A stretch of 32,000 bases of DNA. It comes from Candidatus Heimdallarchaeota archaeon. Lineage in GTDB: Archaea > Asgardarchaeota > Heimdallarchaeia > JABLTI01. Under the pieces are notes generated by a model. That model was not told the DNA's origin, made no database searches, and worked only from the letters and a program-made list of their open reading frames with translations. The DNA lies in NCBI GenBank assembly GCA_030614005.1, contig JAUWKS010000008.1, positions 1 through 32,000 on the forward strand, in the 5' to 3' direction. Below, in pieces: positions 13,738 through 28,719 of this stretch; the stretch's first letter is position 1; each line of letters starts with the position of its first letter. Made by a program: the position numbers and the translations under genes.

Positions 13738-14604
13738 TTATTCAGATAAATTTTCCGTTATTATTTTCCATATTTCTTTTATCTCTTCAGCAACGTTATT
13801 TTTAGGCATCTCTAAAATACTTTTATGGGCAATAATACTTTCAGGAACAATTGTGTTATAGGGTATTTTTCCTGTAAGAAGAATGTCCTTTTCATTACAG
13901 AATTTCTCTATACTTTGAGTTATTCTTTCATTCAAATCGCTTTTATTTATACATACAAGTGCTTTCACACCAAAATGAATTGTAACATCTAAAACTCGTT
14001 TTAAGTCATGAATACCACTTAACGTTGGTTCAACAACAATGAGTGCTAAATCTACACCAGTAATTGAAGCGATAACCGGGCAACCAATACCGGGAGATCC
14101 ATCAACGATAACGTATGGTAGATTTTTTTCTTCGGCGATTTTACGTGCTTCTTTTCTTACTGTATCAACTATTCGACCTGAAGAACCCTCGCCAATTTCC
14201 ATATTTGCATGAACAAAAGGACCGAAACGTGTATTTGATGTTAATATTCTCGCTGATAGGAATGCTTTAAGAGTTAATGCTTTTTCAGGGCAAACACGTA
14301 CACAAAGGCCACATCCTTCACACCGATACCTTTCATAGGTATCTGCAGTTATAGCATCAAATTGACAATGTTCTCCGCACAAATTGCATTTTTTGCATAA
14401 GTCTTCATTGCGAATAACTTTATTAGAAATATTCAAATCGGTTGAAGAAATAATATCAGGATGTAGTATTAGATGCAAATCCGGCGCATCCACATCTGCA
14501 TCAGCCATTACAGCATTACCTTGTGCTAGATAAGCTATTCCTGCTGCAACTATTGTTTTTCCGGTGCCTCCTTTCCCACTTATTATCGTGATTTGTTTAA
14601 CCAT
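13738..14604 (-). CDS. MinD-superfamily P-loop ATPase with inserted 2x[4Fe-4S] ferredoxin domain
   Basis: SGKGGTGKT, DADVDAPD, CKKCNLCGEHC, CEGCGLCVRVCP, DGSPGIGCP, VEPT. Confidence 0.9.
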   Translation of the reverse strand: MVKQITIISGKGGTGKTIVAAGIAYLAQGNAVMADADVDAPDLHLILHPDIISSTDLNISNKVIRNEDLCKKCNLCGEHCQFDAITADTYERYRCEGCGLCVRVCPEKALTLKAFLSARILTSNTRFGPFVHANMEIGEGSSGRIVDTVRKEARKIAEEKNLPYVIVDGSPGIGCPVIASITGVDLALIVVEPTLSGIHDLKRVLDVTIHFGVKALVCINKSDLNERITQSIEKFCNEKDILLTGKIPYNTIVPESIIAHKSILEMPKNNVAEEIKEIWKIITENLSE

Positions 14605-15445
14605 GAGATTTGACTCTCCGCTCTATTTCAGCAAATAGTTTTTGGAATTGTTTTTTCCATTCAGGTTTTAACTCCACTAAAGATATTCCTTCTGAATATG
14701 CTTTTGCAATTTCTTTATCAAAAAGAATTTTCATCAAAATTGGGATACCTTCCTTTTTACAGAACTCTTCTACAGAAAGATCTCCACCCAATCCATCACG
14801 GTTAATAATTACTCCAAATGGTATTCCTAAGCTTCTAACTACCTCTACTGCAATTGTTAGATCATATAAACCAAATGGCGTTGGTTCAGTAACCAATATG
14901 CAATAATCTGTATCACTTATCGTTTCGATAACTGGACAAGAATTTCCAGGTGGAGCATCTAATATCGCAATCGAGTTTTCTTTTATTTTTGATTTTACGG
15001 CTTGAATAACAGGTATTCCTCTAGGTATCCCGATATTTAACAATCCATTAACAAATTCAATAGAATTATGCGCTTTTCCTATAGAAATTTCCCCTACAGT
15101 AAATCTTTGTTCTGAGATTGCATCCTCAGGACAAACAAATTCACATGCCTTACAACTCATACACAATTCTTTGAAAAAGATGATAGTATTTTGTAGAGCT
15201 ACTAACGAATTAAATTCACAAGCTTCAGCACAGAGCCCACACTTTGTACATTTTTCATCATCTATTAAGGGGTTATAAACAGTAATATCTTCTGTTGTTT
15301 CTATTTTTGGTTTAAGGAAAATATGCGCGTTAGGTTCTTCCACATCACAATCGAGAAATTGACATTCTTGAAGTGAGAGCGCGAGATTGATTGCTACTGT
15401 GGTCTTTCCAGTACCACCTTTGCCACTTGCTATACTAATTTTCAT
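14597..15445 (-). CDS. MinD-superfamily P-loop ATPase with inserted ferredoxin domain, paralog
   Basis: ASGKGGTGKTT, DCDVEEPN, CTKCGLCAEAC, CMSCKACEFVCP, DAPPGNSCP, TEPTPFG; overlaps the next gene by 8 bp. Confidence 0.9.
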   Translation of the reverse strand: MKISIASGKGGTGKTTVAINLALSLQECQFLDCDVEEPNAHIFLKPKIETTEDITVYNPLIDDEKCTKCGLCAEACEFNSLVALQNTIIFFKELCMSCKACEFVCPEDAISEQRFTVGEISIGKAHNSIEFVNGLLNIGIPRGIPVIQAVKSKIKENSIAILDAPPGNSCPVIETISDTDYCILVTEPTPFGLYDLTIAVEVVRSLGIPFGVIINRDGLGGDLSVEEFCKKEGIPILMKILFDKEIAKAYSEGISLVELKPEWKKQFQKLFAEIERRVKSHG

Positions 15446-15506
15446 ATTTTTTGCCTGCTACTTTTGAATTTTTAACTAAAGAAAATAAAGAAAAAAAAGT
15501 TATAAT

Positions 15507-15872
15507 CTAGTGTTTACGTTTGCTTTCAGCACAACCATCTGTTTCAGAGGCTTGTGTGAGTTCCCCTTTATTATAGGATTCTAAAGCATCCTTTACAATA
15601 GTACTTTGGGTAACGAACACTCCTATTCCAAGTTCATCAAATAAATTGATAGCTTTTCTTCCAAGCCCTCTACAAATTAGAACATTGATTTTGCTATTTT
15701 GTAAAGTAACAGGTGCAGAGTGTTTTCCTCCAAAATGTTCGCCAATATTTTCAAGAACAGAAGCACTATTGGTTTCTGTATCAACAACCGTATAAAGTGG
15801 TGCACGACCAAAATGGTCTGCAATAGTTGCTTCTAATTCTTTATTATTCATTACTGGAAATGCTATTTTCAT
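15507..15872 (-). CDS. NifB/NifX (dinitrogenase FeMo-cofactor biosynthesis-like, orange protein-type) family protein
   Basis: MKIAFP...HFGRAPLYTVVD...NVLICRGLGRKA...GIGV; 121 aa. Confidence 0.88.
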   Translation of the reverse strand: MKIAFPVMNNKELEATIADHFGRAPLYTVVDTETNSASVLENIGEHFGGKHSAPVTLQNSKINVLICRGLGRKAINLFDELGIGVFVTQSTIVKDALESYNKGELTQASETDGCAESKRKH

Positions 15873-15895
15873 GATTAATCAAAACCGTTTTTTTG

Positions 15896-16288
15896 TTAAT
15901 TTCGTCCTCGTCCTATTCCTCGACCGCCACCCATTCCGGGTCGTCCACTATTAGATGGTCCATCTGCTTGAGGTAACTCTTTATTTTTTAGCTTAGCTAA
16001 TGCATCACTTATTGTACCTCTAAATATGAAGAGTTCGATATTTGCTGCTTTAAGAGTCATAAATGCATTTGGTCCAAATTGATTAGAAATAACTGCATCT
16101 GCCTTATGATTAACGATGGCTTGGGCAGCCATAGTTCCTGCTCCGTGTCCCTCGTATTGAGCTTTATTTTCGAATGCTTCAAATGACATATCGTTTAATT
16201 CAACGATAATAAAATGATTACATCGTCCAAATCTTGAATCTATAGATCCTTCTAGATTATTACTTGTTGCGGGTATTGCTACTCTCAT
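15896..16288 (-). CDS. NifB/NifX family protein with Gly/Arg-rich tail
   Basis: MRVAIP...SRFGRCNHFIIV...GHGAG...DAVISNQFGPNAF; C-terminal GRPGMGGGRGIGRGRN. Confidence 0.9.
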   Translation of the reverse strand: MRVAIPATSNNLEGSIDSRFGRCNHFIIVELNDMSFEAFENKAQYEGHGAGTMAAQAIVNHKADAVISNQFGPNAFMTLKAANIELFIFRGTISDALAKLKNKELPQADGPSNSGRPGMGGGRGIGRGRN

Positions 16289-16369
16289 TCATATCACCTT
16301 ATAATAAATAGTAAATTACAATATTAATTAGTATGTTAGATAGAAATTGTGCTTTTATTAATTTTAATA

Positions 16370-16726
16370 TTATCTTAAGCGTTTAAGTTTTTGTTTCAAA
16401 TCTTTTAAATCATTTTCCAAATCATCTATTCGGTCAACTAGTCTATTTTTTTCTTGTTCAGGATTTTCTTCAGCAAAAGTTTGGTATGTTTGTTGCCAAT
16501 ATTTTGCGCTCGGAGTTCCTTCAGAAAAATCTTCAAGAAAATTACTCATTTGACCAGTTTTTTGCAAATATGCTGCACAAGGTCCCATGCCTCTTCCAGG
16601 ACCCATTCCTCGTCCTCCACGTGCAAAGCCGGGGGAATTTCCATATCTAATCCATCCAGGCGTACCAGTTAATTCATACATTCTTCGGTTCCGTCCTGTC
16701 TGATTGTTTCCTCTACGATAACCCAT
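16370..16726 (-). CDS. DUF5320-like Gly/Arg-rich coiled-coil protein
   Basis: GFARGGRGMGPGRGMGPC followed by C-terminal coiled coil EQEKNRL...LENDLKDLKQKL; typical neighbour of NifX/DUF134 genes. The track start is 16735. Confidence 0.7.
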   Translation of the reverse strand: MGYRRGNNQTGRNRRMYELTGTPGWIRYGNSPGFARGGRGMGPGRGMGPCAAYLQKTGQMSNFLEDFSEGTPSAKYWQQTYQTFAEENPEQEKNRLVDRIDDLENDLKDLKQKLKRLR

Positions 16727-16786
16727 GATGTTCACATAGCATTATTTTTGTATAATAATACATAAATACCTTTAACTATTTAAGAG

Positions 16787-16808
16787 TTTTTGTGCATATG
16801 AACAAAAA
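16787..16808. promoter_or_regulatory. 22-bp palindrome TTTTTGTGCATATGAACAAAAA, candidate operator
   Basis: Inverted symmetry with one mismatched pair, lying in the divergent intergenic region between DUF5320-like and DUF134 genes. Confidence 0.55.
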
Positions 16809-16870
16809 GAATTAAAAATTCTAAAGAGTTAATTAAATAAGTATAAGGACGAAATAGTAGTTGTGATTAA

Positions 16871-17215
16871 ATGAGAAACTATCGCTGTCGAAGAGGTCAA
16901 AGAAGGGGTCCAAATGCCTCTGAAGATTTTATGCAACCAATGCGAGGGAGACCTCTAAAAGAAATATTAATTGAAGACTACCCAAAAGTAGAGAAAGTAG
17001 TACCAAGTCCCCTAATATCTGATGAGACAATTCTTTTGTCCATCGCAGAATATGAAGCTCTACGTTTAGTGGATCTTGATGGTTTAAATCAAGATCAAAC
17101 AGGTGTTTTAATGAACATTTCTAGAGGAACAATCTGGCGTTTATTAGATTCAGGCAGAAGAAAATTAATTCAAGTAATTGCTGAAGGTAAGAGTCTAGAA
17201 ATTGAGAAACAATAA
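16871..17215 (+). CDS. DUF134 (UPF0251) putative HTH DNA-binding protein
   Basis: MRGRP...EYEALRLVDLDGLNQDQTGVLMNISRGTIWRLLDSGRRKL is the DUF134 pattern. Confidence 0.9.
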   Translation: MRNYRCRRGQRRGPNASEDFMQPMRGRPLKEILIEDYPKVEKVVPSPLISDETILLSIAEYEALRLVDLDGLNQDQTGVLMNISRGTIWRLLDSGRRKLIQVIAEGKSLEIEKQ

Positions 17216-17351
17216 TACTGTAAAGAACAAGTATTCTTATAAAGAAATTCTCCATCCAAATATTATTTACCAATTTAGGTAAGTTAAAAAACAAATGAAG
17301 TATCTGTCAAATACTAAACTTTACCTATTACTTGTCAATTTGGGGATTTTA

Positions 17352-18134
17352 ATGACACCTAGGAAGAATGAGCAAAATAGCAATGAGAGTTTGAAAGAGA
17401 ATATTAGAAATCTAATTGGTAATAAAGATGAAATAAATTTAGAGTGGTTAAAAACAGTCACTCAAGCGTCAGCAGCTGAAATATCAAAGCTTATTATACA
17501 AGAATTTGGATTAGTAGTGTTAGATGGAATGATTTATTCTAAGGAAAAAGCTGAAAGAAAATTAAAGCAGATGCAAGAATCAGCTCAGACTGTTGTCGAC
17601 AGAGAATCTTTTCGCACAGGCCGTGTAAATATTGATATGATGCAATTACGTGAAAAACTGTGGACTGCTAGGTTTCCAGAAAAAGTTTTAGGACAAAATA
17701 GACATCAATTCTGCCCCATTTGGGCTTTTTTGGAAGGACAAAGTAGCAGTATTGTTCTTAGGTATGATTGGATATCTCGATTAGATAAAGCAGTTAAAGA
17801 TGGGCTCTATTCCAAAATTAAAAATTATGATTTAAAAGAACTCATTAATGAAATGGGTGAGAATTTTAAAGGAAAAGCTAGGGTTGTTTTCGCAAAAACT
17901 CATCCAAGAGACACTACATTATTTAAAAACAAGTCCATGTGGGTTCTCTTTTTAGTGGCGGAAGCTGAAGGAGGAATTAGACTAGAAGGATTAGATATGA
18001 TTAATATCCTCACTCTTTCCACCAAATTTAAATCTCGGGAAATTGCCTTTAAATGTCTAAATGAATATATCGAATTTATTAATTTCATTGTAAATGATCC
18101 TTCAATATTCGAAGAAATAATAATTGCAAAATAA
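17352..18134 (+). CDS. Hypothetical protein, possibly with an N-terminal winged-helix-like segment
   Basis: Long ORF (track 17295-18134) with no competing gene; ATG 17352 follows GGGG; no family recognised. Confidence 0.6.
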   Translation: MTPRKNEQNSNESLKENIRNLIGNKDEINLEWLKTVTQASAAEISKLIIQEFGLVVLDGMIYSKEKAERKLKQMQESAQTVVDRESFRTGRVNIDMMQLREKLWTARFPEKVLGQNRHQFCPIWAFLEGQSSSIVLRYDWISRLDKAVKDGLYSKIKNYDLKELINEMGENFKGKARVVFAKTHPRDTTLFKNKSMWVLFLVAEAEGGIRLEGLDMINILTLSTKFKSREIAFKCLNEYIEFINFIVNDPSIFEEIIIAK

Positions 18135-18173: not shown

Positions 18174-18686
18174 TTATTCTTCTACAAAATTCTTTAGCAA
18201 TGTATTAAAAAACAAACGCAATTCAATTGGTGTGTGTTTTTTTTCGCGCATACAATAAATAGCAATGTTATTACAAAGATAACACTTACGCTTAGTTCCT
18301 CTCTCAATATGTTGATCAGAATGAGGACCCAATACATCAATATCTAATAATCGACCTATAATATAGCTTTCTTCAAACTTGATTGATAATTTTTTTATTT
18401 TTGCAGGATCTTCTTTTGCTAAGAAAAATGCTTCAGGTCCTAGAATGGTTTCATTTTGCTCTAAAAGAGAGAGCTCTTGGTGGTTATTTTTCATATAACT
18501 ACAAAAACCAAATCTACTTTTCTGAAATGCTTTTTTTATTTCAATAGAGTTCTTAGGCCAAGAAGGGATATTAAATTTGAAGCTAATAATGGTGGACTCA
18601 TATTCACGTTTGAGATTATGTTGCTTAATCCAACGAACCTCTTTAGCTTGAAGAATCTGTTTTTGAATAGCTTCAATTTCAGTCAA
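18174..18686 (-). CDS. citX: Citrate lyase holo-ACP synthase CitX
   Basis: ILQAKE.RW..Q, NIP..PKN, GPEAF, KKL.I.FEE....GRLLDIDV, RKCYLC...A..C.R...H; follows citF. Confidence 0.88.
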   Translation of the reverse strand: MTEIEAIQKQILQAKEVRWIKQHNLKREYESTIISFKFNIPSWPKNSIEIKKAFQKSRFGFCSYMKNNHQELSLLEQNETILGPEAFFLAKEDPAKIKKLSIKFEESYIIGRLLDIDVLGPHSDQHIERGTKRKCYLCNNIAIYCMREKKHTPIELRLFFNTLLKNFVEE

Positions 18687-18740
18687 AGAAATTACTCCTT
18701 ATAACACTAAACAAAACAAGTCTTTAGAAATTTATCTGAG

Positions 18741-18771
18741 AAAATAAAAGGAAAAAATCCTTCTGGATTTT
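18741..18771 (-). terminator. Hairpin plus T-tract downstream of citF
   Basis: AAAATCC-4nt-GGATTTT (18754-18771) followed by TTCCTTTTATTTT on the minus strand. Confidence 0.4.
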
Positions 18772-18779
18772 CTCTCTAT

Positions 18780-20330
18780 TCACTCTTTAATTTGACATAC
18801 AACATCAAGTATTGTTCCATCACGATGCTCTATAATTGCCACAATTCTCTCTTCAAAAGGAATAGGGTCTGGAGCTCCACCAACCAATTCGTATGCAATA
18901 TCGCGGAGTTCTTCGATTTTCATATAATTAATGCCCTTTAATTTCATTAACTTATTATAAAACTTGCATTCGGGATTGACTGCAACGCCATAATCAGTTA
19001 CCACAACATCAATATTCATACCTGGTGAAGTTACAGTAGTTACACGATCAATAATAACGGGATTGCGCCCTCGCAAGAGAGGCAAAGCAACAATCGTTAA
19101 TTTTGCTCCTTCTGAAGTGTCTTGATGACCACCAATACCATGTAATATTCTACCATCAGATTCAGTAACGACATTGACATTAAAGTTTATATCCACTTCA
19201 GTTGCACCTAAAACAACTGTATCAAGAACATTGACTGCTGCACCACTACTATGAATATTAGCGTACTGTGAAGCACCAATTCCAATGTGATTTGGGTTAT
19301 TTTTTAGTGACTGAATAGCCACTTTATCAAAAGCTTGGACATCTAATATACGAGTAAACAAACCAGATTCAAGCATTTCAACAAGAGCAGAAGTAGAACC
19401 GCCCATACCAAAAGAACCTTTGATGTCTAAATCCTTCATTCGCTCACTTAGGAACTTTGTTACTGCTAAAGTAATGCCTCCAGCACCACTTTGAAATGAG
19501 AACCGATCTTTTAACAAACCAGATCCTTCAATTACTTTAACACAGGTTTTAGCAATGCCTAATCGAATAGGGTCTCGAGTAATTCTTGTTGTTCCAGAAA
19601 CAATGCCATCAGGATTACCGATTGGTTCCTTTATCTTAACAACGTAATCAACATGATTTTGATTGATAAAGATATTATTACAAGGAAATGGTACAAGATT
19701 ATTAGTAACTGCTATTACCATGTCTGCAAATTGTGCATCTGGAACCATATAACCTAGAGGTCCACAAGCTTGTTTGCCATCTACTCCATTAAGATTACCA
19801 AATTCATCCGCGGTTGGTGCACCAATAAAGGCAACATCTATCCTACAATCTCCATCCTCAATTGAGCGAGCTCTTCCTCCATGAGATCGAACTGTAAGAA
19901 TGCCTTTCAGCTTTCCCCGAGAAATTGCATCTCCAACGGGACCTGTAACTCCACAACAGATGTTTGTAATTGTTCCATCTTCAACATATTTTACTAATGG
20001 AGCATGAACAGGGTGAATGGAAGAAGGTGCTAAAGTAATATTCTTTATTCCTTTTTCAGCAATTTTCTTAATTACTAAATTCATCAAATTGTCTCCACCT
20101 CTAAAATGATGGTGAAAACTGATAGTCATTCCGCTTTTTAATTCTGATTTTTCAATAGCTTCATCGATTGATTGCAAAAGCTTTGTTTCACCTGATAATC
20201 TTCTTCTTATTCTAGTAGCTGCTTTGTGAGTTGGCATTGTATATTGCCCTAAGCCCATAAAGGGTTGAAGTTTGCGACCATTGATTTTTTTAGGAATTTT
20301 TCTTCCAACAATATTCTCAGTGAATTCCAT
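18780..20330 (-). CDS. citF: Citrate lyase alpha subunit / citrate CoA-transferase
   Basis: GMTISFHHHFRGGD, RSHGGR, DVAFIGAPTAD.FGN, SFQSGAGG, GIGGHQD; 516 aa. Confidence 0.96.
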   Translation of the reverse strand: MEFTENIVGRKIPKKINGRKLQPFMGLGQYTMPTHKAATRIRRRLSGETKLLQSIDEAIEKSELKSGMTISFHHHFRGGDNLMNLVIKKIAEKGIKNITLAPSSIHPVHAPLVKYVEDGTITNICCGVTGPVGDAISRGKLKGILTVRSHGGRARSIEDGDCRIDVAFIGAPTADEFGNLNGVDGKQACGPLGYMVPDAQFADMVIAVTNNLVPFPCNNIFINQNHVDYVVKIKEPIGNPDGIVSGTTRITRDPIRLGIAKTCVKVIEGSGLLKDRFSFQSGAGGITLAVTKFLSERMKDLDIKGSFGMGGSTSALVEMLESGLFTRILDVQAFDKVAIQSLKNNPNHIGIGASQYANIHSSGAAVNVLDTVVLGATEVDINFNVNVVTESDGRILHGIGGHQDTSEGAKLTIVALPLLRGRNPVIIDRVTTVTSPGMNIDVVVTDYGVAVNPECKFYNKLMKLKGINYMKIEELRDIAYELVGGAPDPIPFEERIVAIIEHRDGTILDVVCQIKE

Positions 20331-20347
20331 TCTAAATACCCTCTAAG

Positions 20348-21265
20348 TTATTTTCTTCTTCCTGCTTCTGCGCGTTTCAGAATCCTTTCAGATCTCTTCA
20401 CAACTGGAACATCGATCATTTTATTGTCAACACAAATAACACCTACTCCTTGTTCTTGAGCAATTTTATAGGCACCAATAATTCGCTCTGCTCTTTCTAT
20501 TTGTGCTTCAGTTGGCATAAATGATTTATGAATTAGTTCAATTTGACTTGGATGAATACACGCTTTTCCATCGTATCCTAAACGAATTATTTTCTTTGTT
20601 TGAAGTAATAAACCAACATTATCTCTAACGTTCGTGTATACAGTATCGTAAACTTGAACACCAGCTCCTCGTGCTGCTAGGAGCAGTTTTGAACGGATGT
20701 ACAACAATTCTTCCCCCTCAATTGTTCGTTCTGCACCTAAATCTGCAGTTAAATCTTCACCACCGGGACTTATTCCAACGATTCTATCACTAGCTAAAGC
20801 AATTTGTTCTGCTTGCAATACTCCCAAAGCAGATTCTATTATGGGTGCCAGTTTAATAGTACCAATTGGCATTCCATTTCTTTCTTCGAAAGCAGCTATT
20901 TTATCACATATTTGTAGTATTTGTTTATGTGTTTCTGCTTTAGGTAAAACTATTGCATAAGGTTTCGTAGGGATAATTTCTTTCAAATCATCTTCAAAAA
21001 ATTCTGTCCCTAAGGGGTTGATTCTTACAGTTACTTCTGTTTCACCAAAATTCAGCGATTTAAGCGCATTACGAACTAATATTCTTGCTGAATCTTTCTG
21101 ATTTATTGCTACACCGTCTTCCAAATCGAATATTACTTGATCTGCTCCAAAGAGAGGTGCATTACGAATCATAGCAGGGTTATTGCCAGGAATGTATAGA
21201 CGTGTTCTTCGTATTTTAGTAACATCTTCAATAGTGCGTTTTACAATTTTAACATCCTTTGACAT
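20348..21265 (-). CDS. citE: Citrate lyase beta subunit (citryl-ACP lyase)
   Basis: RRTRLYIPGNNP, FDLEDGV, VRIN, IES, GGEDL, GKACIHPSQI; lies between citD and citF. Confidence 0.95.
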   Translation of the reverse strand: MSKDVKIVKRTIEDVTKIRRTRLYIPGNNPAMIRNAPLFGADQVIFDLEDGVAINQKDSARILVRNALKSLNFGETEVTVRINPLGTEFFEDDLKEIIPTKPYAIVLPKAETHKQILQICDKIAAFEERNGMPIGTIKLAPIIESALGVLQAEQIALASDRIVGISPGGEDLTADLGAERTIEGEELLYIRSKLLLAARGAGVQVYDTVYTNVRDNVGLLLQTKKIIRLGYDGKACIHPSQIELIHKSFMPTEAQIERAERIIGAYKIAQEQGVGVICVDNKMIDVPVVKRSERILKRAEAGRRK

Positions 21266-21267
21266 TC

Positions 21268-21546
21268 CTACGACTCCTTTTTAATAGCTCGTTTTATTGC
21301 TGTCTCTGTTCGAGCTTTAATTGTGAACCCTAATGCCCCTTTGTCAATTGCTTGAACTTTAACATCCTCTATTTCGAAATCCTTTATTACAAATTCAATT
21401 TCTTCGTGGATTTTCCTGCCGTATTGTACTAAAGAAGGTGAATCTAAATTTATAATAATGCCAGTACCAGCTTTCCCTTTTTTTACTGTAACCAAAATAT
21501 CTTGTGATTCAAGGGAACCTGCTTGTGCAGATCGTAGAATTTTCAT
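21268..21546 (-). CDS. citD: Citrate lyase acyl carrier protein (gamma subunit)
   Basis: MKILRSAQAGSLESQD with the conserved prosthetic-group Ser, DKGALGFTIKAR; ATG 21546 has GGAG upstream, so the track start of 21621 is too long. Confidence 0.93.
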   Translation of the reverse strand: MKILRSAQAGSLESQDILVTVKKGKAGTGIIINLDSPSLVQYGRKIHEEIEFVIKDFEIEDVKVQAIDKGALGFTIKARTETAIKRAIKKES

Positions 21547-21631
21547 AATGATTTTCTCCAAATGATTATTGAGCAAATTATTTTTTATTCTTGAAAGAGC
21601 TAAAGTTAAGTGGTTAACCACCTAACACTCT

Positions 21632-23719
21632 TCAATTGTTTACTTGTTGATTTCTTACCTTTGCTTTAACTAAAGGTAGTGCTCCACCTTGTTTGAGCAT
21701 TTCAATTTCTTTGAATGAAAGGTTTACGTTTGTTGCAAAAATGAATCCTTTCGTTGTATTTTCAACTTCAATTTCAGAGATACCCTCTTTCAATTGAACT
21801 AAATTCTTTATTGTTAAAACGTCGCTTTGGTCTATTTTGTCATAGATGTTTTCATCTGAAAATTCTAATGGAAGCATACCCCACTGAATTAAATTATCAC
21901 GGTGTATTCGTGCAATGCTTTTAGCAATCACTGCACCAAGACCAAGCCACATAGGTGCAATTGCAGCATGTTCACGACTTGAACCTTGACCGTAATTGCT
22001 CCCACCAACAATAATGAATACTCTTCGTTTGTGTTGCGGATTTAAATCTAGGGCGCGTTTTACGAAAGTATTGTCAACAGGATTGAAAACAAATTGGGCA
22101 ATTGCCGGAATATTTGACCTCAAAGGAAGTACTTGCGCTCCTGCCATCATAATATCATCAGTGGTGATGTCATCACCAGTTTTAAGCAATACTGAACCGG
22201 TTATTTGATCTGCTAAAGGATCATTTATTGGACAATCAATAATATTAGGCCCTTTTACAATTGCAACAGCAGCTCTTTCTTTAGCGTCTTTTGAAGGATA
22301 AATGAACATATTCTTTGAAGTTATGAATTGCTCTGGTTCGCTGAATATCTCTGGTTTAATGTCTTTCTCTTGTAAAGGATCAACAAATTTTCCTTTAATA
22401 GCAATTAATGCCGCTGAGGTAGCACTCATAAGATATGTGCCAGCTGATTTTTCTCCAGATCGTCCAAAGAAGTTTCTGTTGAATGTTCGACAAGAAATAC
22501 TATTTGTATTAGGTGTTTGACCCATACCTATACATGGTCCACAAGTACACTCTAGCATTCTTGCACCAGTTTCAAGTATATCCGCAAGTAATCCCTCTCG
22601 AGCAATTTGAGTTACAACATTCTTAGATCCTGGGGATACTGTTAAGCTGATGTGTTGAGCTACAACTTGTCCTTTCATAACAGATGCAGCAGTAGCTAAA
22701 GCTAAATAAGAAGCATTTGTACAAGAGCCTATACAAACTTGATCTACTTGTAACTCTCGAGAGTATAAACGCTCAACGTGCTCTTTGATATCCGCATGAA
22801 CTTTTTCTGGCATATTTTTCACAATTGATTCAATAGGAGTACGTTCGACAAGCTCACGAATGGAAACAACGGAACCAGGACTATGAGGCAATGCAACATT
22901 AGGCTCAAGTTTTGACAAATCTATTTCTATGATTTCATCGTATACAGCATCTTTATCTGCTTCTAGTGGTGAATAATCATTTTCTCTTCCTTGTGCTTTA
23001 AGAAAGTGTTGAGTTAATTCATCGCTTGGAAAAATAGATGTAGTTGCTCCTAATTCTGCACCCATGTTAGTAATTGTTGCTCGTTCTGGAGCAGTTAAAT
23101 CTTTAACACCAGGACCAGAATACTCGAATATTGCCTTTCTACCACCTCGAACTCCTTTCATTTTTAGAAGCTCAAGAATAACATCCATTGCAGTAACCCA
23201 TGGTTTTCGCAATTTGCCTTTGAGATGAACCTTTATTACCATTGGATATTTGAGTTCAAAGGGTTCTCCAGCCATTGTTGTAGCAATAACTAGTCCACCA
23301 ACGCCGATAGCCATTGAACCTACTCCTCCAGCAGTTGGGGTATGTGAGTCAGAACCTAATAGAATTTTCCCTGGTGCAGCAAAATTTTCAAGATGAACTT
23401 GATGTATGATACCATTTCCGGGACGAGATAAAATAGCACCTTTCTTTGCTGCTATTGCTCGCAAAAATTGATGATCATCTGCATTTCTAAAGTCAGTTTG
23501 TAAAGTATTATGATCAATATAAGATACTGCAAGAGGCACTTTAATATCTGGAATGCCAATGGCTTCAAATTCTAGCCAAGCCATAGTTCCAGTAGCATCT
23601 TGAGTGATACACTGATCAACTTTAACAAATACTGGGTCACCTGGTTTATATTCTTCAACTTTCTTTTCAGAGATATCATGAGCTTCCAGTATTTTTTGGA
23701 CAATATTCTTACCAGTCAT
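21632..23719 (-). CDS. acnA: Aconitate hydratase (compact Aquifex-type)
   Basis: QDATGTMA, DHN, GSDSHT, GAELGAT, IGSCTN, CGPCIGMG, NRNF.GR, NYGQGSSREHA; adjacent to icd. The symbol is approximate. Confidence 0.9.
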   Translation of the reverse strand: MTGKNIVQKILEAHDISEKKVEEYKPGDPVFVKVDQCITQDATGTMAWLEFEAIGIPDIKVPLAVSYIDHNTLQTDFRNADDHQFLRAIAAKKGAILSRPGNGIIHQVHLENFAAPGKILLGSDSHTPTAGGVGSMAIGVGGLVIATTMAGEPFELKYPMVIKVHLKGKLRKPWVTAMDVILELLKMKGVRGGRKAIFEYSGPGVKDLTAPERATITNMGAELGATTSIFPSDELTQHFLKAQGRENDYSPLEADKDAVYDEIIEIDLSKLEPNVALPHSPGSVVSIRELVERTPIESIVKNMPEKVHADIKEHVERLYSRELQVDQVCIGSCTNASYLALATAASVMKGQVVAQHISLTVSPGSKNVVTQIAREGLLADILETGARMLECTCGPCIGMGQTPNTNSISCRTFNRNFFGRSGEKSAGTYLMSATSAALIAIKGKFVDPLQEKDIKPEIFSEPEQFITSKNMFIYPSKDAKERAAVAIVKGPNIIDCPINDPLADQITGSVLLKTGDDITTDDIMMAGAQVLPLRSNIPAIAQFVFNPVDNTFVKRALDLNPQHKRRVFIIVGGSNYGQGSSREHAAIAPMWLGLGAVIAKSIARIHRDNLIQWGMLPLEFSDENIYDKIDQSDVLTIKNLVQLKEGISEIEVENTTKGFIFATNVNLSFKEIEMLKQGGALPLVKAKVRNQQVNN

Positions 23720-23747
23720 TATATTGTCAACCTTCAGAGTAATTATT

Positions 23748-25049
23748 TCATAGATTAGCTATAATTGCATCAGCAAATTCTGAAGTGCCAATTGGTTCAA
23801 CATCAGCTAATTGTCTAGCAATATCGTAAGTAACCTTCTTTTGAGCGATTGCTTTTTCTACACCAGCTTTGATTGTTTCTGCTGCTTCAGTCCAACTCAT
23901 GTAATCAAGCATCATAATTGCTGAATAAATTACTGAACCAGGATTTACTTTGTTTAAACCAGCATGCTTTGGTGCTGTACCATGTGTAGCTTCAAAAACA
24001 GCTGCTTTATCACCTACATTTGCTCCTGGTGCAAATCCTAAGCCACCTACTTGTGCTGCAAGCGCATCAGAAATATAATCACCATTTAAATTAGGTAAGG
24101 CAAGAACACCATATTCTGCTGGGCGGAGAAGTATTTGTTGGAACATTGAATCAGCGATTCTGTCATTAATCATAACTTTTCCTTCGGGTATTTTACCATC
24201 ATATTTATCGTAGACTTCTTTTTCGGTTATGACTGAATCAGCGAATTCTTGTGCAGCTAATTTATAGCCCCAATCTTTGAATTTACCTTCTGTAAATTTC
24301 ATAATATTACCTTTATGAACTAAAGTAACTTTATCATATCCTTTCTCGAAAGCAAAATTGATTGCCATACGAACTAATCTTGAAGTATTAGCCCAAGACA
24401 TTGGCTTAATACCAATACCTGATTCCATCGTAATATTCTTTCCAAGTTCATCATTAAGGAAAGTTATTAACTTCTTTGCATCAGCAGATTCAGGTTCAAA
24501 TTCAATCCCAGAATAAACATCTTCGATATTTTCTCTGAAAATAACCATATTAACATTTTCAGGATGCTTTACTGGAGCAGGTACACCTTTGATGTGCTTT
24601 GCTGGTCGTATACAAGAATAAAGATCTAATTTTTGCCTAATTGCAACATTCAGACTTCTAAATCCACCACCTATTGGTGTTGTCAATGGTCCTTTTATAG
24701 CAACGATATGATCCATAATAGCCTTTAGTGTGTCTTTTGGTAAGTAAAGATCTCTCAAAACTGCTGGATCGAGCTCACTTAATTGTTCATCTGTATATTC
24801 TGCAGCATAGATTTTTCGTGCTTTTTCACCGGCAAATATTTCAAACCAAACGATTTCCTTTTTGCCATCATATACTTTTTTAATTGCTGCATCAACTACT
24901 TTTCTCATTGCATCCATAATTTCTGGACCTATTCCATCACCTGCAATAAATGGAATAATAGGTTTATCAGGAACAACGAGTTTCTGATTATAATCCTTTG
25001 TTATTTTTTCTCCAGTTGTTGGAGGAGTTATTTTTTCATAGCTGCTCAT
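23748..25049 (-). CDS. icd: Isocitrate dehydrogenase, dimeric prokaryotic type, probably NADP-dependent
   Basis: [70 protein letters not shown]. Confidence 0.96.
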
Positions 25050-25332
25050 AAGATTCCCTCGTACAGAAAACTTAATTTATTGAATACAATAGTGCCAAGC
25101 TATATGTATCCGAATGACCCTTTCAAAACGTGTTGCCTTTAAAATTATCCATTGATATTCATTAAAGAATATTTGAAGTCATATACTTAGATAAATATTT
25201 AATTAAATAAATTATTGTTAAATGAATATCTATCTGTTTTTTATGTGAAATAATCTTTCTTTAACAATAGAAGTCTCGAAGAGGTTTTTCCATCATATTT
25301 AGTTGTAATTTGACATTCCCTTCTTGTTAAAT

Positions 25333-25360
25333 AAAAAGGAAAGTGTAGAGAAATCTACAC
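25333..25360 (-). terminator. Hairpin plus T-tract downstream of degV
   Basis: GTGTAGA-4nt-TCTACAC (25343-25360) followed by TTTCCTTTTTAT on the minus strand, 16 nt past the stop codon. Confidence 0.55.
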
Positions 25361-25376
25361 AATTTTACTCTTATTA

Positions 25377-26276
25377 TTATTTAGTTTTTAGAAGCCATTC
25401 AGGATCAAAATCACCAATATAACCAAAAGCAAGCAATTTCTTCCCTGTGTAGAAAGCATTTATTACTCCTGTTTCTTGGATGAAGATCTCTTTATTATCT
25501 GGATTGTGCTTCTCCATATGGGCTTTAATCTCTTCAGCGGCTTCAGGCCATCTTGAGTGTGCAATGTAAAGTGTTTTATTATCCTTCACCATACTTACCA
25601 ATGCTTTTTCACCAAACTTCTTCATTTGTCCGATAATTAATTCATCATCAGCTTTTATGTTGCCATGAACATGAATTTCTTCGTCAATGAAAGAAACCAC
25701 TGGTTTAAACTTCAAGATGTCTGCAAAGAATTTCTTGGTCTTAGATAATCTGCCTGTTCGTACAAGATTCTCTAATTTATTTATGATACCTGCGTACTTT
25801 GTTTTCTTTGTCCATTCTTCAACTTTTGCAGTCACTTCTTCCATTGAAGCTCCTTGAGCTGCAAGTCTAGCTGCTTCTAATACGACTATTCCAACACCAA
25901 CACTATTTGCTGGAGCATAAAACGTCTTGATATCTTTATCCGCCAAGTACTGTTTTACAACCGTTGTTGCAGTATTATAGACACCTGAAAGTTTGTGTGT
26001 AATGAAGATACCAATTGCAGAGTCAGCAATTTCCAATGCTTTTTCGAATGTCTGCATGAATACCCCTGGTCCAGGAATTCCTGAAGTGGGGACTTCTTTT
26101 TCAGTCACCTTGTAGAATTCATCCCAGGTCAAGCCTTTTTCTATTCCTAAAGATTTGTAAGATTTCTCTTCAAAATTCAATAATATTGGAACAATTGTGA
26201 TATTATATTTTTCTTCAAATTCTGGTGGAATATCACTAGAAGCGTCTGTTACTATTGCTACTTTTTGTTTTGCCAT
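25377..26276 (-). CDS. degV: DegV family fatty-acid-binding protein
   Basis: IVTDASSDIP, PTSG.PGPG, I..KLSG.YN.A, LENLVRTGRLS, LKFKPVV. Confidence 0.92.
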   Translation of the reverse strand: MAKQKVAIVTDASSDIPPEFEEKYNITIVPILLNFEEKSYKSLGIEKGLTWDEFYKVTEKEVPTSGIPGPGVFMQTFEKALEIADSAIGIFITHKLSGVYNTATTVVKQYLADKDIKTFYAPANSVGVGIVVLEAARLAAQGASMEEVTAKVEEWTKKTKYAGIINKLENLVRTGRLSKTKKFFADILKFKPVVSFIDEEIHVHGNIKADDELIIGQMKKFGEKALVSMVKDNKTLYIAHSRWPEAAEEIKAHMEKHNPDNKEIFIQETGVINAFYTGKKLLAFGYIGDFDPEWLLKTK

Positions 26277-26418
26277 TTCTTACACTTTCCTATTTATTTT
26301 TGAATTGACTTTATAATTAGAATTGATATTACAATGATTCTTGCATTTTTAATTTTTTTGTCCGAACTTTAACAGATAAATTTCTTGAAATTATATACTA
26401 ATTGTTTAGTAATTATCT

Positions 26419-26564
26419 ATGTCAACCCAGTGAATATTCAAAAGCTAATTCTTGATCCTAAAGAGAATTTATGGTAAAAGGGGTAGCAAATTATCAACAA
26501 AGAAAAGTGTACTTTGATAGCCTTCAAACTTAACATTACTTCTTGGCCTAAAAATACCACTTGA
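26419..26564 (+). pseudogene. citX: Decayed 5' fragment of a second citX
   Basis: Frame 26436-26555 reads IQKLILDPKENLW*KG*QIINKEKCTLIAFKLNITSWPKN, 20/40 identical without gaps to CitX residues 7-46 of this window; two internal stops, and a 1-nt deficit after ATG 26419. Confidence 0.85.
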
Positions 26565-26613
26565 ACTCATATGATTTTCTTTATTTTATTTGATATCAAG
26601 CTAGTTTTGAAAA

Positions 26614-28719
26614 TCATAAAGGCAGATTTGAAATAAAATCAAATAGTCTTTCTTTCTCATATGAAAAATCATTTTTATCTTCAGTCAGCAATAAAGGAAG
26701 GAAAATTTCTTTGATATTGTCTTTGGAAATTTCTAATTCTTTTGAGATTAGTTTCAATAATTTAAGAATCTCAGTAAGCTTCTCATTGATGAAAAAATCA
26801 AAAATTTCCAGAGCTTGATTTGAGATGTCCTCTTGGTCATGAATAAATTCATCTTTCACAATAAGAACTAACTCGTTAATCAATCTTATCAATGTTAGTA
26901 AATCATGAGCTGCTATTTCGGGATAACGATGCATCAAAAATTGAATAATAGAAACTTTATTTTCTTTTCCGAAATGTAAACTAATAGACAACATTAGTGG
27001 AATATCAATGTGTTCAAGATCTAAATCTGCATAATAAAGAACCATTTTATTTAACCAATTTTCAATTGTGAGACTTTTCAGCATCTTAGGTAATTTCTTT
27101 GGCATTTCATTCTTGATTAATTCTAACAATTTTATAATAACAATAACCGAAGATTCTAGTGCAATTTTCTCTCCGATGATTTTTTCATTTCGATTTAGTG
27201 TTTTTCTTAATAATTTTGAATCCGTTTCAGAAATAGTATTTAGGAATTCATAAATAGTTAATAGTTTCTTTTCAACTTCAATTTTTGAATATATTCTGTC
27301 AATAGTTAGCTCGTTAATCAAAGCAACTCGGTCATCAAAAGATAATTCTTGCATTGAAATATTCACTAAATCTAATTCACTTAGACCTGAAAACAGTTCT
27401 ATTCTAGCAGCTTCCTTTTTTGAGTATGCACCTATTTCCAAAGATGATTTCAAAGGACTATCCTTATCACTTGTAGTATCATCAACTTTATCCAATTCCT
27501 TTTCAGCCAAATCACGAATTTGGTTTTTGCTTTCTTCTAGAATTTCTAGGGTCATTGCTTTCTTAATTGAAAATATGGTTGCAAAAAGACAACTAATTTC
27601 AAATAGTGTTTCCTTTTTTTTACGTTCATTCTCCATTTCAGAAACATATCTGATTATATCAATTAATTGTGAATCCCCGGAGTTAGCAGCTTGAATAATT
27701 TCCATGGTCGATGAATGAGTATAACTTGCGATAATTGTAGAAGCAATCCAAGCCTGGGCTATTTTTTTAGCAAGAAGGTTCGTTGGTAATTTAGCTAAGA
27801 ATTTTACTAGTAAATCAGTTTCACCTTTACTAAGTTCTTTCAACAAAAGATTGATTTCCCGCAGATTCTTTTCTTGTTTAACTTTTTCAATCAGATTGTC
27901 GAAAGAAAGATCTATTAATGTTCTTGCAAATTGCAAATCTATTAAACGAAGTGTAGTTATTAAAGCTGGTATACTTGTTAATTGCTCTTGGGTTTTGAGA
28001 AGTTGTTCCAAGAAGCTAGTCAAGTTATACAATAATTCTATTATAGATTTCTTCTTTAACTTACTTAAACCAAACAAAATTTTGTTGATATAAACAATAT
28101 CACTTTCGCTAGTTATGAGTGATTCAAAATTCTTTAGAGTGCCAGTTCGTAATTCTCCTAATTTTGGATTTTTCAAATGCTCAATACTCATATTGCCAAT
28201 TGCATTTATTACCTCCTCAATTTCAGAACCCTTACCAGATACATTGAAGTTTTCAATTGTTAACTCCCAAGAAGTCTTCTTATTTTCTACTAAAGCTTCA
28301 ATTTCAGCTTTCTTTGATTCTATCTTGCAATCTATTAGATTTTTACCTACTAAGACTATTGGAATATTTCCACAATTAACCACTACCTCAGTTATCCATT
28401 TTTCGAGATTTATTAGGAAATCTGAGCAAGTAAAGTCGTAAATCAATATACAACTATGAGCATGATGCAACATAAACCTACGTGTCGATTCAAATCTAGG
28501 TGAGGTATCTATATCAGATACAACAAATTGTATACCATCTTGATTATTTAATGAACGCCAATTTATAAGAAGTATATCAACTCCAATGAATTCCTTTTGA
28601 TTGGAACCAAATCCCTTTTTTACTTTTGGGTGATTTATAAGAAAATCACGATTGACTAATGGATCACTAAGAATAATCATTTTTCGTTTGAAAAAATCAG
28701 TGGTTTTTTTTTCAGCCAT
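26614..28719 (-). CDS. Degenerate Rab-like GTPase domain fused to about 40-aa helical repeats
   Basis: The N-terminal ~170 aa keeps small-GTPase order (IGVD, CILIYD, LEKWITE, IPIVLVG, SGK) but G1/G3/G4 are altered; the Leu/Ile-rich C-terminal ~500 aa has recurring L.EKI..E..L..I..LL units. Confidence 0.7.
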   Translation of the reverse strand: MAEKKTTDFFKRKMIILSDPLVNRDFLINHPKVKKGFGSNQKEFIGVDILLINWRSLNNQDGIQFVVSDIDTSPRFESTRRFMLHHAHSCILIYDFTCSDFLINLEKWITEVVVNCGNIPIVLVGKNLIDCKIESKKAEIEALVENKKTSWELTIENFNVSGKGSEIEEVINAIGNMSIEHLKNPKLGELRTGTLKNFESLITSESDIVYINKILFGLSKLKKKSIIELLYNLTSFLEQLLKTQEQLTSIPALITTLRLIDLQFARTLIDLSFDNLIEKVKQEKNLREINLLLKELSKGETDLLVKFLAKLPTNLLAKKIAQAWIASTIIASYTHSSTMEIIQAANSGDSQLIDIIRYVSEMENERKKKETLFEISCLFATIFSIKKAMTLEILEESKNQIRDLAEKELDKVDDTTSDKDSPLKSSLEIGAYSKKEAARIELFSGLSELDLVNISMQELSFDDRVALINELTIDRIYSKIEVEKKLLTIYEFLNTISETDSKLLRKTLNRNEKIIGEKIALESSVIVIIKLLELIKNEMPKKLPKMLKSLTIENWLNKMVLYYADLDLEHIDIPLMLSISLHFGKENKVSIIQFLMHRYPEIAAHDLLTLIRLINELVLIVKDEFIHDQEDISNQALEIFDFFINEKLTEILKLLKLISKELEISKDNIKEIFLPLLLTEDKNDFSYEKERLFDFISNLPL

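Follow-up and report, generated by a model that had tools for sequence, protein, structure and literature searches.

A linked isocitrate dehydrogenase, aconitase and citrate lyase gene block in Heimdallarchaeia and its proposed role in reductive citrate cleavage

The 32,000-nucleotide stretch of DNA analysed here (the window; contig JAUWKS010000008.1, or C24 in our numbering, of assembly GCA_030614005.1) belongs to a metagenome-assembled genome (MAG) of Heimdallarchaeia, called G000 below, that is 3.6 Mb long and 90.4% complete. The window carries a block of six intact, co-oriented open reading frames (ORFs), icd, acn, citD, citE, citF and citX, all on the minus strand, for an isocitrate dehydrogenase (IDH), an aconitase and an acyl carrier protein (ACP)-dependent lyase of the citrate lyase family. 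We propose that the block is the reductive C6 branch of an anaerobic, probably amino-acid-fed metabolism, in which 2-oxoglutarate would be converted through isocitrate and citrate to oxaloacetate and acetate, bypassing succinate oxidation, and we give this reading a probability of about 0.45. Co-transcription of the genes, citrate as the substrate of the lyase, the direction of the route and the source of its 2-oxoglutarate are parts of the proposal that we infer. What would be new is a citrate-cleaving end of a reductive tricarboxylic acid (TCA) branch built from the fermentative citrate lyase. No account of an Asgard icd-aconitase-citrate lyase operon was found in the searchable literature, which covered few subscription papers, and the Asgard papers searched mention ATP-citrate lyase (ACL) only (10.1101/385732; PMC11976288).

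Gene products of the block

The intergenic gaps from icd to citX are 28, 85, 2, 17 and 93 bp, with the citD start taken at the ATG at 21546. The first-pass annotation had described six co-oriented genes with short gaps, and this description stands, with the gene order conserved in relatives. Five of the six predicted products (IDH, aconitase, CitD, CitF and CitX) exceed curated NCBIfam cut-offs; CitE does not.

The first gene, icd (23748..25049), encodes a predicted dimeric NADP-type IDH of 433 aa that scores 628 bits on TIGR00183 (cut-off 567). In alignment, the isocitrate motif SLN and the NADP-side residues K344, Y391 and R395 (E. coli numbering) are kept and Y345 is replaced by His, so that the family score and the isocitrate and NADP residues, one Tyr-to-His change excepted, are those of a prokaryotic NADP isocitrate dehydrogenase. 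The gene is single copy and encodes the only IDH of its type in G000. The next gene, acn (21632..23719), encodes a single-chain protein of 695 aa that is assigned by cut-offs as an aconitate hydratase of the PRK07229 type: it scores 856 on NF005558/PRK07229 (cut-off 612), is over the cut-off of TIGR01342, reaches 163 on the homoaconitase model (cut-off 530) and stays below the homoaconitase and isopropylmalate isomerase cut-offs. It is the only intact aconitase proper in G000, and its nearest structures are mitochondrial aconitases. Among six aconitase homologues checked, cit genes were linked only at the family member (L221) and not at the five more distant ones.

The lyase genes follow. The predicted acyl carrier protein CitD (21268..21546; 92 aa; TIGR01608 71, cut-off 63.5) conserves the prosthetic-group site Ser14, with GSLES aligned to E. 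coli GTLES. CitE, the acyl-ACP lyase (beta) subunit (20348..21265; 305 aa), has TIGR01588 as its best match at 324 bits, below the cut-off of 443. CitF, the ACP transferase (alpha) subunit (18780..20330; 516 aa), scores 620 on TIGR01584 (cut-off 501) and matches PDB entries 2HJ0 and 1XR4. The holo-ACP synthase CitX (18174..18686; 170 aa from a TTG, in a frame open to about 18707) scores 107.4 on TIGR03124 (cut-off 105.25).

In the proposed route, the NADP-IDH would carboxylate 2-oxoglutarate using NADPH and CO2, the aconitase would convert isocitrate to citrate, and the lyase, armed by CitX and by the distantly encoded CitG and CitC, would split citrate into oxaloacetate and free acetate with no use of ATP. 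A C5 compound would reach oxaloacetate without succinate oxidation and with consumption of NADPH, and oxaloacetate could go on to phosphoenolpyruvate (PEP, through PEP carboxykinase, PEPCK), pyruvate (through malic enzymes), aspartate or succinate. The 2-oxoglutarate might come from transamination, from 2-oxoglutarate oxidoreductase (KOR) or from a homocitrate-type module that would end in a second citDEF.

Conservation, range and loss

We compared 399 Asgard genomes, of which 12 form the family of G000 (f1); by elimination, f1 is probably Gerdarchaeales (JABLTI01) and another family, f6, probably Hodarchaeales, two of the three orders that Heimdallarchaeia comprises (PMC11193907). The closest named records by CitF are Heimdallarchaeota MAGs (92-94% identity), and matching DNA is present in cold-seep and marine-sediment metagenomes. 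Linked icd-acn-citD-E-F genes occur in G000, G071, G072, G076, G080, G081 (second genus) and GCA_019058195.1, and the block is divided by contig ends in G075 and G078. The linkage has thus persisted across two genera. A record titled Bathyarchaeia, DATKZI010000061.1, has the gene content of contig C61 of G080, in the genus of G000, and is probably mislabelled.

The block is neither a chance arrangement nor a misassembly, since its order is shared by five other family genomes and GCA_019058195.1 and since an independent 7,457-bp contig from another strain covers positions 20896-28354 (citE to past icd) with 39 differences. The third-position GC content (GC3) of the block genes (0.18-0.24) is near the genome mean (0.24 +/- 0.03), so the genes fit a native origin. 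Contamination was ruled out by synteny, GC3 and the independent contig.

Within the class, citD and citC have the same range: citD is found in 10 of the 399 genomes, all of them in f1 or the sister genome G001. In the family, citC is present in eight of the nine genomes with citF and in none of the three without it. In those three (G074, G079 and G077), citD, citF and citC are absent throughout, and the three make up a single clade nested among carriers of the block. The nesting and the co-absence indicate that the ancestor of the family had the block and that a single loss removed the entire lyase system.

CitF homologues without CitD or CitC occur in f6 (L175, L182, L183 and L186), beside a citryl-CoA-lyase-like gene or a fusion of SucD with citryl-CoA lyase (CCL). 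They belong to a different system, possibly a carrier-free lyase. In Thermoplasmatales (L008, L010 and L056), citF lacks adjacent citD and citE and is followed directly by a gene for a LeuC-like large subunit.

Sources of citrate

A profile scan of the ORFs flanking the block found no citrate synthase or carrier, which agrees with the statement of the first-pass annotation that the window holds neither; genome-wide searches place the candidates on contigs other than C24. No carrier gene lies in or beside the block at any locus read. That annotation had also allowed that a transporter and a synthase elsewhere in the genome might explain ordinary citrate use. This is partly so: G000 encodes an unlinked carrier and a candidate Re-citrate synthase, but no Si-citrate synthase.

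G000 has no match to the citrate synthase family (PF00285). In G071 and G074, genes for Si-citrate synthase and AcnA lie between two genes that are only 145 bp apart in G000, and the G000 gap keeps an AcnA relic, the last ~40 residues at 63-70% identity (C30:11860-11976; L200). The loss of the cassette is therefore real rather than an assembly gap. AcnA-like tails also occur in G075 and G078, which suggests repeated loss of acnA. Si-citrate synthase and the block are found together in four genomes, and the presence in some relatives of a separate synthase/AcnA cassette besides the block suggests two directions served by two aconitases.

The single HMGL-family synthase of G000 (C74:31161-32396; L122:9162-10397) is below all homocitrate synthase (HCS), LeuA and CimA cut-offs. 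It is ~70% identical to bacterial proteins, with one 70% homologue named Citrate (Re)-synthase; Chloroflexota dominate its nearest atlas clusters, and a search found no LysX. It is a plausible candidate for a Re-citrate synthase, presumably resembling the Dehalococcoides enzyme. Only two of the 12 family genomes (G000 and G078) have the gene intact; in G072 the locus holds a broken relic. No icd or aconitase gene lies near three bacterial homologues of the synthase. G080 and G081 keep icd-acn-citDEF, and no Si-citrate synthase, HMGL-family synthase or AcnA was found in them; G072 keeps the block with only a LeuA-like gene beside leuC and the broken Re-type relic.

In tblastn searches of G000, AclA, AclB, citryl-CoA synthetase (CCS)-like and CCL queries from relatives (the AclB query verified) matched only SucCD and ADP-forming acetyl-CoA ligase (ACD), and PrpD and isocitrate lyase were not found in the genome.

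The established role of CitDEF is the fermentation of citrate. Citrate, isocitrate or aconitate could accordingly be imported, with the lyase fermenting most of it to acetate and oxaloacetate and with aconitase and IDH oxidising part to 2-oxoglutarate and NADPH. The single tricarboxylate-carrier candidate of G000, a VcINDY/SLC13-like divalent anion:sodium symporter (DASS; C9:90607-92520), could serve, two malic enzymes resemble CitM, and import would explain why the block is retained without a synthase. Loci of Sporomusa and Pelosinus join an aconitase-family gene to citDEF, and at 0.1 mM imported citrate both branches are feasible together, with a max-min driving force (MDF) of +4.8. However, the carrier gene never shows linkage to the block and persists in the three genomes from which the entire Cit system has disappeared, no homologue of CitP, TctA or TctC was found in the search, and free citrate would not be an obvious substrate in cold-seep and marine-sediment habitats. 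We consider import rather unlikely, though it is the strongest alternative to the reductive reading.

Activation genes, a second lyase and the question of substrate

The genes citC and citG, arranged tail to tail on contig C68, complete the activation set together with citX; citC is over its cut-off, and citG is over the Pfam cut-off and scores 254 on TIGR03125 (cut-off 272). G000 also has a second, stand-alone citD-E-F operon (C69:19743-22533; L113), with a CitF 60% identical to that of the block, at a locus conserved in the family. Since citX is intact in one copy only, it would serve both lyases. A decayed citX copy with stops lies on the plus strand at 26412..26651 (tblastn 41-51% identity over 41-68 aa, E ~1e-8 within the region); it is specific to the rearranged upstream region of G000 and is covered by the independent contig. 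Both G000 copies and the single copy of the sister genome G001 form one clade (support of 100 in the CitF tree and 98 in the CitE tree), which points to one acquisition followed by duplication. These trees were quick, query-biased in sampling and midpoint-rooted, and we therefore claim no donor lineage.

The substrate of the block lyase is less readily assigned than its family. Neither the trees nor diagnostic columns assigned one. On TIGR01588, where the CitE of the block scores 324, an Enterococcus CitE scores 468, a citramalate-context enzyme 303 and a homocitrate-context enzyme 282. We found intact CitD, CitE and CitF, Ser14, and CitG, CitX and CitC, as expected for EC 4.1.3.6, with CitE falling short of its cut-off. 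The substrate call thus rests on gene context, and the block enzyme is best described as an ACP-dependent lyase of the citrate lyase family rather than as a proven EC 4.1.3.6.

It is conceivable, and in our view quite unlikely, that the genes of the block share only an address. The icd-acn pair would then run oxidatively with a Si- or Re-citrate synthase for glutamate, and the lyase would act on a different hydroxy acid, for example homocitrate or citramalate. The CitE score, nearer to the citramalate- and homocitrate-context enzymes than to Enterococcus, fits this alternative, as do the candidate Re-citrate synthase in G000 and the icd-acn pairs that stand alone in G074 and G079. In addition, CitDEF homologues of methylaspartate clusters are putative citramalate lyases that have been annotated as citrate lyases (PMC4682846). 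However, no glutamate mutase large subunit or methylaspartase was found in G000 (90% complete), the Re-type gene is rarely intact in the family, and in G080, G081 and G072 no synthase was found that could supply icd-acn. A merely shared address also fits poorly with a linkage that lasted across two genera and with a second citDEF that is free for another substrate.

The distribution of the second copy bears on this division of labor. Across genomes it is largely complementary to an ATP-dependent enzyme made of a SucC-like protein and the SucD/CCL fusion: the fusion is found in G071, G074, G077 and G075 (in which the second citDEF is broken by an insertion), the second copy or a relative in G000, G072, G073, G078, G080, G081 and G001, and both in G076. 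In family f3 (L246 and L247), a single operon encodes an HD protein, LeuB-like, LeuC, LeuD and fused LeuC proteins, the SucC-like protein and the SucD/CCL fusion, and is a candidate ATP-dependent counterpart of a homocitrate-type lyase module. The HD protein, LeuB-like dehydrogenase and two LeuC-type hydratases are encoded at scattered sites in G000. In this small sample of related, incomplete genomes, the pattern tentatively suggests that the second copy serves a homocitrate-type module and the block copy the citrate step.

Energetics and direction

MDF values (in kJ/mol) were estimated from textbook formation energies under assumed concentration bounds. Starting from 2-oxoglutarate, the reductive branch gave +7.7 to +14, and remained positive with transamination as the source (+4 to +9) or with an NAD-linked glutamate dehydrogenase (GDH; +3.5 to +7). 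Condensation of acetate and oxaloacetate by the lyase, leading to 2-oxoglutarate or glutamate, gave -0.5 to -9.7 at all acetate levels to 50 mM. With condensation negative and the reductive branch positive, the lyase very probably cleaves.

These estimates make it highly improbable that the lyase runs in reverse as a substitute for citrate synthase, from acetate and oxaloacetate through citrate and 2-oxoglutarate to glutamate. Deletion of the Si-citrate synthase/AcnA cassette could have called for such a substitute, NADP-IDH and NADP-GDH would balance, and the sequence to glutamate has a standard-state energy change of about -40 kJ/mol. However, across the ranges of acetate and oxaloacetate tried, equilibrium citrate would be only 2 nM to 10 uM, four genomes hold both the block and Si-citrate synthase, and KOR offers another route to 2-oxoglutarate. 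The suggestion in the first-pass annotation that the run might feed citrate towards glutamate thus finds no support where the citrate is made by the lyase, and could still apply to imported citrate.

The other suggestion made there, that 2-oxoglutarate is reductively carboxylated to citrate, which is then split into acetate and oxaloacetate with no need of ACL, has the best support: G000 lacks ACL, CCS, CCL and Si-citrate synthase, the branch is feasible by MDF, and relatives keep the block with no citrate synthase found in them. Several points weigh against the reductive reading. The GDH of G000 looks NADP-type, and a reductive branch sharing one NADP pool with an oxidising GDH gave an MDF of -4 to -7; direct coupling being infeasible in this estimate, 2-oxoglutarate would need another source. 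The textbook energies and assumed bounds limit all the MDF values. In both copies, CitE shares 40-47% identity with the enzymes compared, whether of citrate, citramalate or homocitrate context. The candidate Re-citrate synthase of G000 and G078 could feed icd-acn oxidatively, and the genomes lacking a synthase (G080, G081 and G072) are 75-90% complete. The DASS carrier is present in all 12 family genomes, lyase or not. Lastly, G074 and G079 keep icd-acn without citDEFX, with acn followed directly by the convergent downstream ORF.

Metabolic setting

G000 has the equipment of a peptide fermenter, including several 2-oxoacid oxidoreductases, ACD-like ligases, a histidine-to-glutamate pathway and two NfnAB-like pairs that could keep NADP reduced. 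PEPCK and malic enzymes are present; no GTP-PEPCK and no malate dehydrogenase (MDH) of the LDH/MDH family over cut-off were found in the genome. Thirteen co-directional genes at C4:77890-90088 (L223), korD-A-B-G, hdrA, mvhD-G-A, a protease gene, hdrC, hdrB, frdB-like and tfrA-like, are a candidate operon for a soluble hydrogenase-linked fumarate reductase with KOR. The tfrA-like flavoprotein gene occurs in 9 of the 12 f1 genomes and 28 of 30 f3 genomes, and the gene order is the same at the loci that were read. Acidaminobacter hydrogenoformans reportedly breaks down glutamate through a reversed citric acid cycle; our literature search did not confirm this, and we do not use it as evidence.

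A full reductive TCA (rTCA) cycle for CO2 fixation, in which CitDEF and ACD would replace ACL at the equal cost of one ATP, seems to us very unlikely. G000 has candidates for every step, among them an Ldh_2-family MDH-like protein, fumarases, SucCD, ACD-like ligases, PEPCK and the korDABG-hdrA-mvhDGA-hdrCB-frdB-tfrA operon, and an rTCA cycle has been suggested in general terms for Heimdallarchaeia (PMC11193907). However, the proteins assigned as MDH, Tfr and ACD score below the curated cut-offs, family f3 too has the kor-hdr-mvh-tfr operon but neither CitDEF nor an IDH of this type, and no close AMP-forming acetyl-CoA synthetase was found. The release of free acetate would also fit fermentation better than assimilation.

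The second lyase allows a wider, more speculative scheme that we think unlikely: the family may degrade 2-oxo acids by reversed chain elongation in two steps. The second citDEF, with the LeuB-like dehydrogenase and two LeuCD pairs, would convert 2-oxoadipate to 2-oxoglutarate and acetate, and the block would then convert 2-oxoglutarate to oxaloacetate and acetate. Combined with the Kor-Hdr-Mvh-Tfr operon, that second step might also complete an rTCA cycle without ACL, one missed by current marker sets. The LOR/SDH N-terminal domain was not found in the family, and lysine entry to the C7 module is thus unsupported.

Comparison with known systems

The block is not a citrate fermentation locus, not an rTCA1 or rTCA2 system and not a methylaspartate pathway. 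It shares with the fermentative citrate lyase operons (EC 4.1.3.6) of E. coli (citCDEFXGT) and Enterococcus (citM-citP-citCDEFXG) the seven-component chemistry (CitD with its Ser14, CitE, CitF, CitX, CitG and CitC), and its CitD, CitE and CitF are 32-46% identical to the E. coli subunits. Unlike those operons, it is led by icd and aconitase, contains no carrier, decarboxylase or regulator gene, has citC and citG on another contig, shares its activation genes with a second citDEF and encodes a CitE below the family cut-off. A linked carrier with an oxaloacetate-decarboxylating gene was absent from the loci read, where the DASS and malic enzyme genes are unlinked; the lack of a linked carrier sets the block apart from fermentation loci.

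The proposed carbon route, from 2-oxoglutarate to oxaloacetate and a C2 unit, is that of rTCA citrate cleavage (by ACL in Chlorobium and by CCS and CCL in Hydrogenobacter) and of eukaryotic carboxylation through IDH, aconitase and ACLY. In contrast to these, the Asgard route would be ATP-free, would yield acetate instead of acetyl-CoA and would use an unrelated enzyme. The block is assigned to neither rTCA1 nor rTCA2 because no ACL, CCS or CCL was found in G000, which has candidates for KOR, fumarate reductase, fumarase, MDH and succinyl-CoA ligase (those for Tfr and MDH score below their cut-offs). Surveys that look for the rTCA cycle by marker genes rely on ACL, CCS and CCL only (PMC9802188). 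An f6 genome (G057) has an analogous arrangement that favors the reductive reading, with an IDH-family gene and a convergent aconitase gene after canonical aclB-aclA (L189). The same genome encodes a 614-aa fusion of citrate synthase II with a PduL/phosphate propanoyltransferase domain (L188:9435-11279), and frames of similar length recur in f6.

The citramalate lyase of the methylaspartate pathway (Clostridium tetanomorphum and a Peptoclostridium acidaminophilum locus) has homologous CitDEF, CitC and CitX, and the pathway likewise turns glutamate carbon into acetate and a C3/C4 unit. Unlike its hosts, G000 has neither glutamate mutase large subunit nor methylaspartase, and the neighbors of its lyase genes are icd and aconitase. 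About 40 loci from Ignavibacteria and others (L016-L082) encode a homoisocitrate dehydrogenase (HICDH)-like protein, HD protein, homoaconitase, PrpD-like protein, fused CitDE and CitF. The uncharacterised Ignavibacteria homocitrate-type lyase operons, of putative function, resemble the block in combining a dehydrogenase, a hydratase and an ACP lyase without a synthase, and differ from it in that the Asgard IDH and aconitase are over their own cut-offs, CitD and CitE are separate, and the CitF and CitE clades are different. In anaerobes, icd and aconitase genes are linked in icd-aconitase-citrate synthase operons of Si or Re type that serve glutamate synthesis; the Asgard block has a lyase in the place of the synthase. 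The Re-type citrate synthase has been reviewed (PMC12016533).

Flanking features of the window

Some 90 nt before the start of icd, a TATA-like box (25136..25150, minus strand) that aligns in 10 of 10 upstream regions compared is a candidate promoter; the genome is AT-rich, and a divergent degV occupies that place in relatives. A scan for sigma-70 promoters, a model unsuited to archaea, was at chance (26 versus 29 +/- 5 expected). Between citF and citX, a hairpin with a T run (18751..18774, minus strand) may be an attenuator or transcript end, and comparable stem-loops lie 3' of citF in G072, G078, G076 and L221. Because of this hairpin, citX may be only partly read through.

Upstream, a hairpin found by scanning (25343..25360, strand not assigned) ends degV and parts it from the block. 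Compared with congeners, positions 25377-28719 show an inverted degV with the citX relic next to it and a 701-aa Roc/Ras-domain ORF inserted before an AFOR gene; G000 holds at least 18 DegV-family genes. Downstream, a convergent ORF with no Pfam or NCBIfam match (17295..18134, plus strand) closes the block and, by synteny, marks the deletion boundary, being kept also in relatives where citDEFX is gone. Beyond it, a conserved cluster (13738-17215) encodes two ParA/MinD-like Fe-S ATPases, two NifB/NifX-like (Nitro_FeMo-Co) proteins and a DUF134 protein.

Discussion

The proposed system consists entirely of known enzymes, is limited to a single Asgard lineage and is not the source of eukaryotic ACLY. 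If the reductive reading is correct, however, close prokaryotic relatives of eukaryotes would have a B12-independent, ATP-free anaerobic route from 2-oxoglutarate to oxaloacetate and acetate, and this route of citrate cleavage would have been overlooked by surveys that use ACL, CCS and CCL as markers. The two paralogous lyases, with their shared activation genes, would also make a clean pair for testing what determines the choice of substrate among such enzymes.

TCA genes of Gerdarchaeota have been taken as support for aerobic respiration (10.1101/858530). In contrast to what an aerobic reading would suggest, G000 dropped Si-citrate synthase and AcnA and yet kept the lyase block. If the block works as we propose, the IDH and aconitase genes in these genomes would have to be read differently, as parts of an anaerobic, reductive branch.

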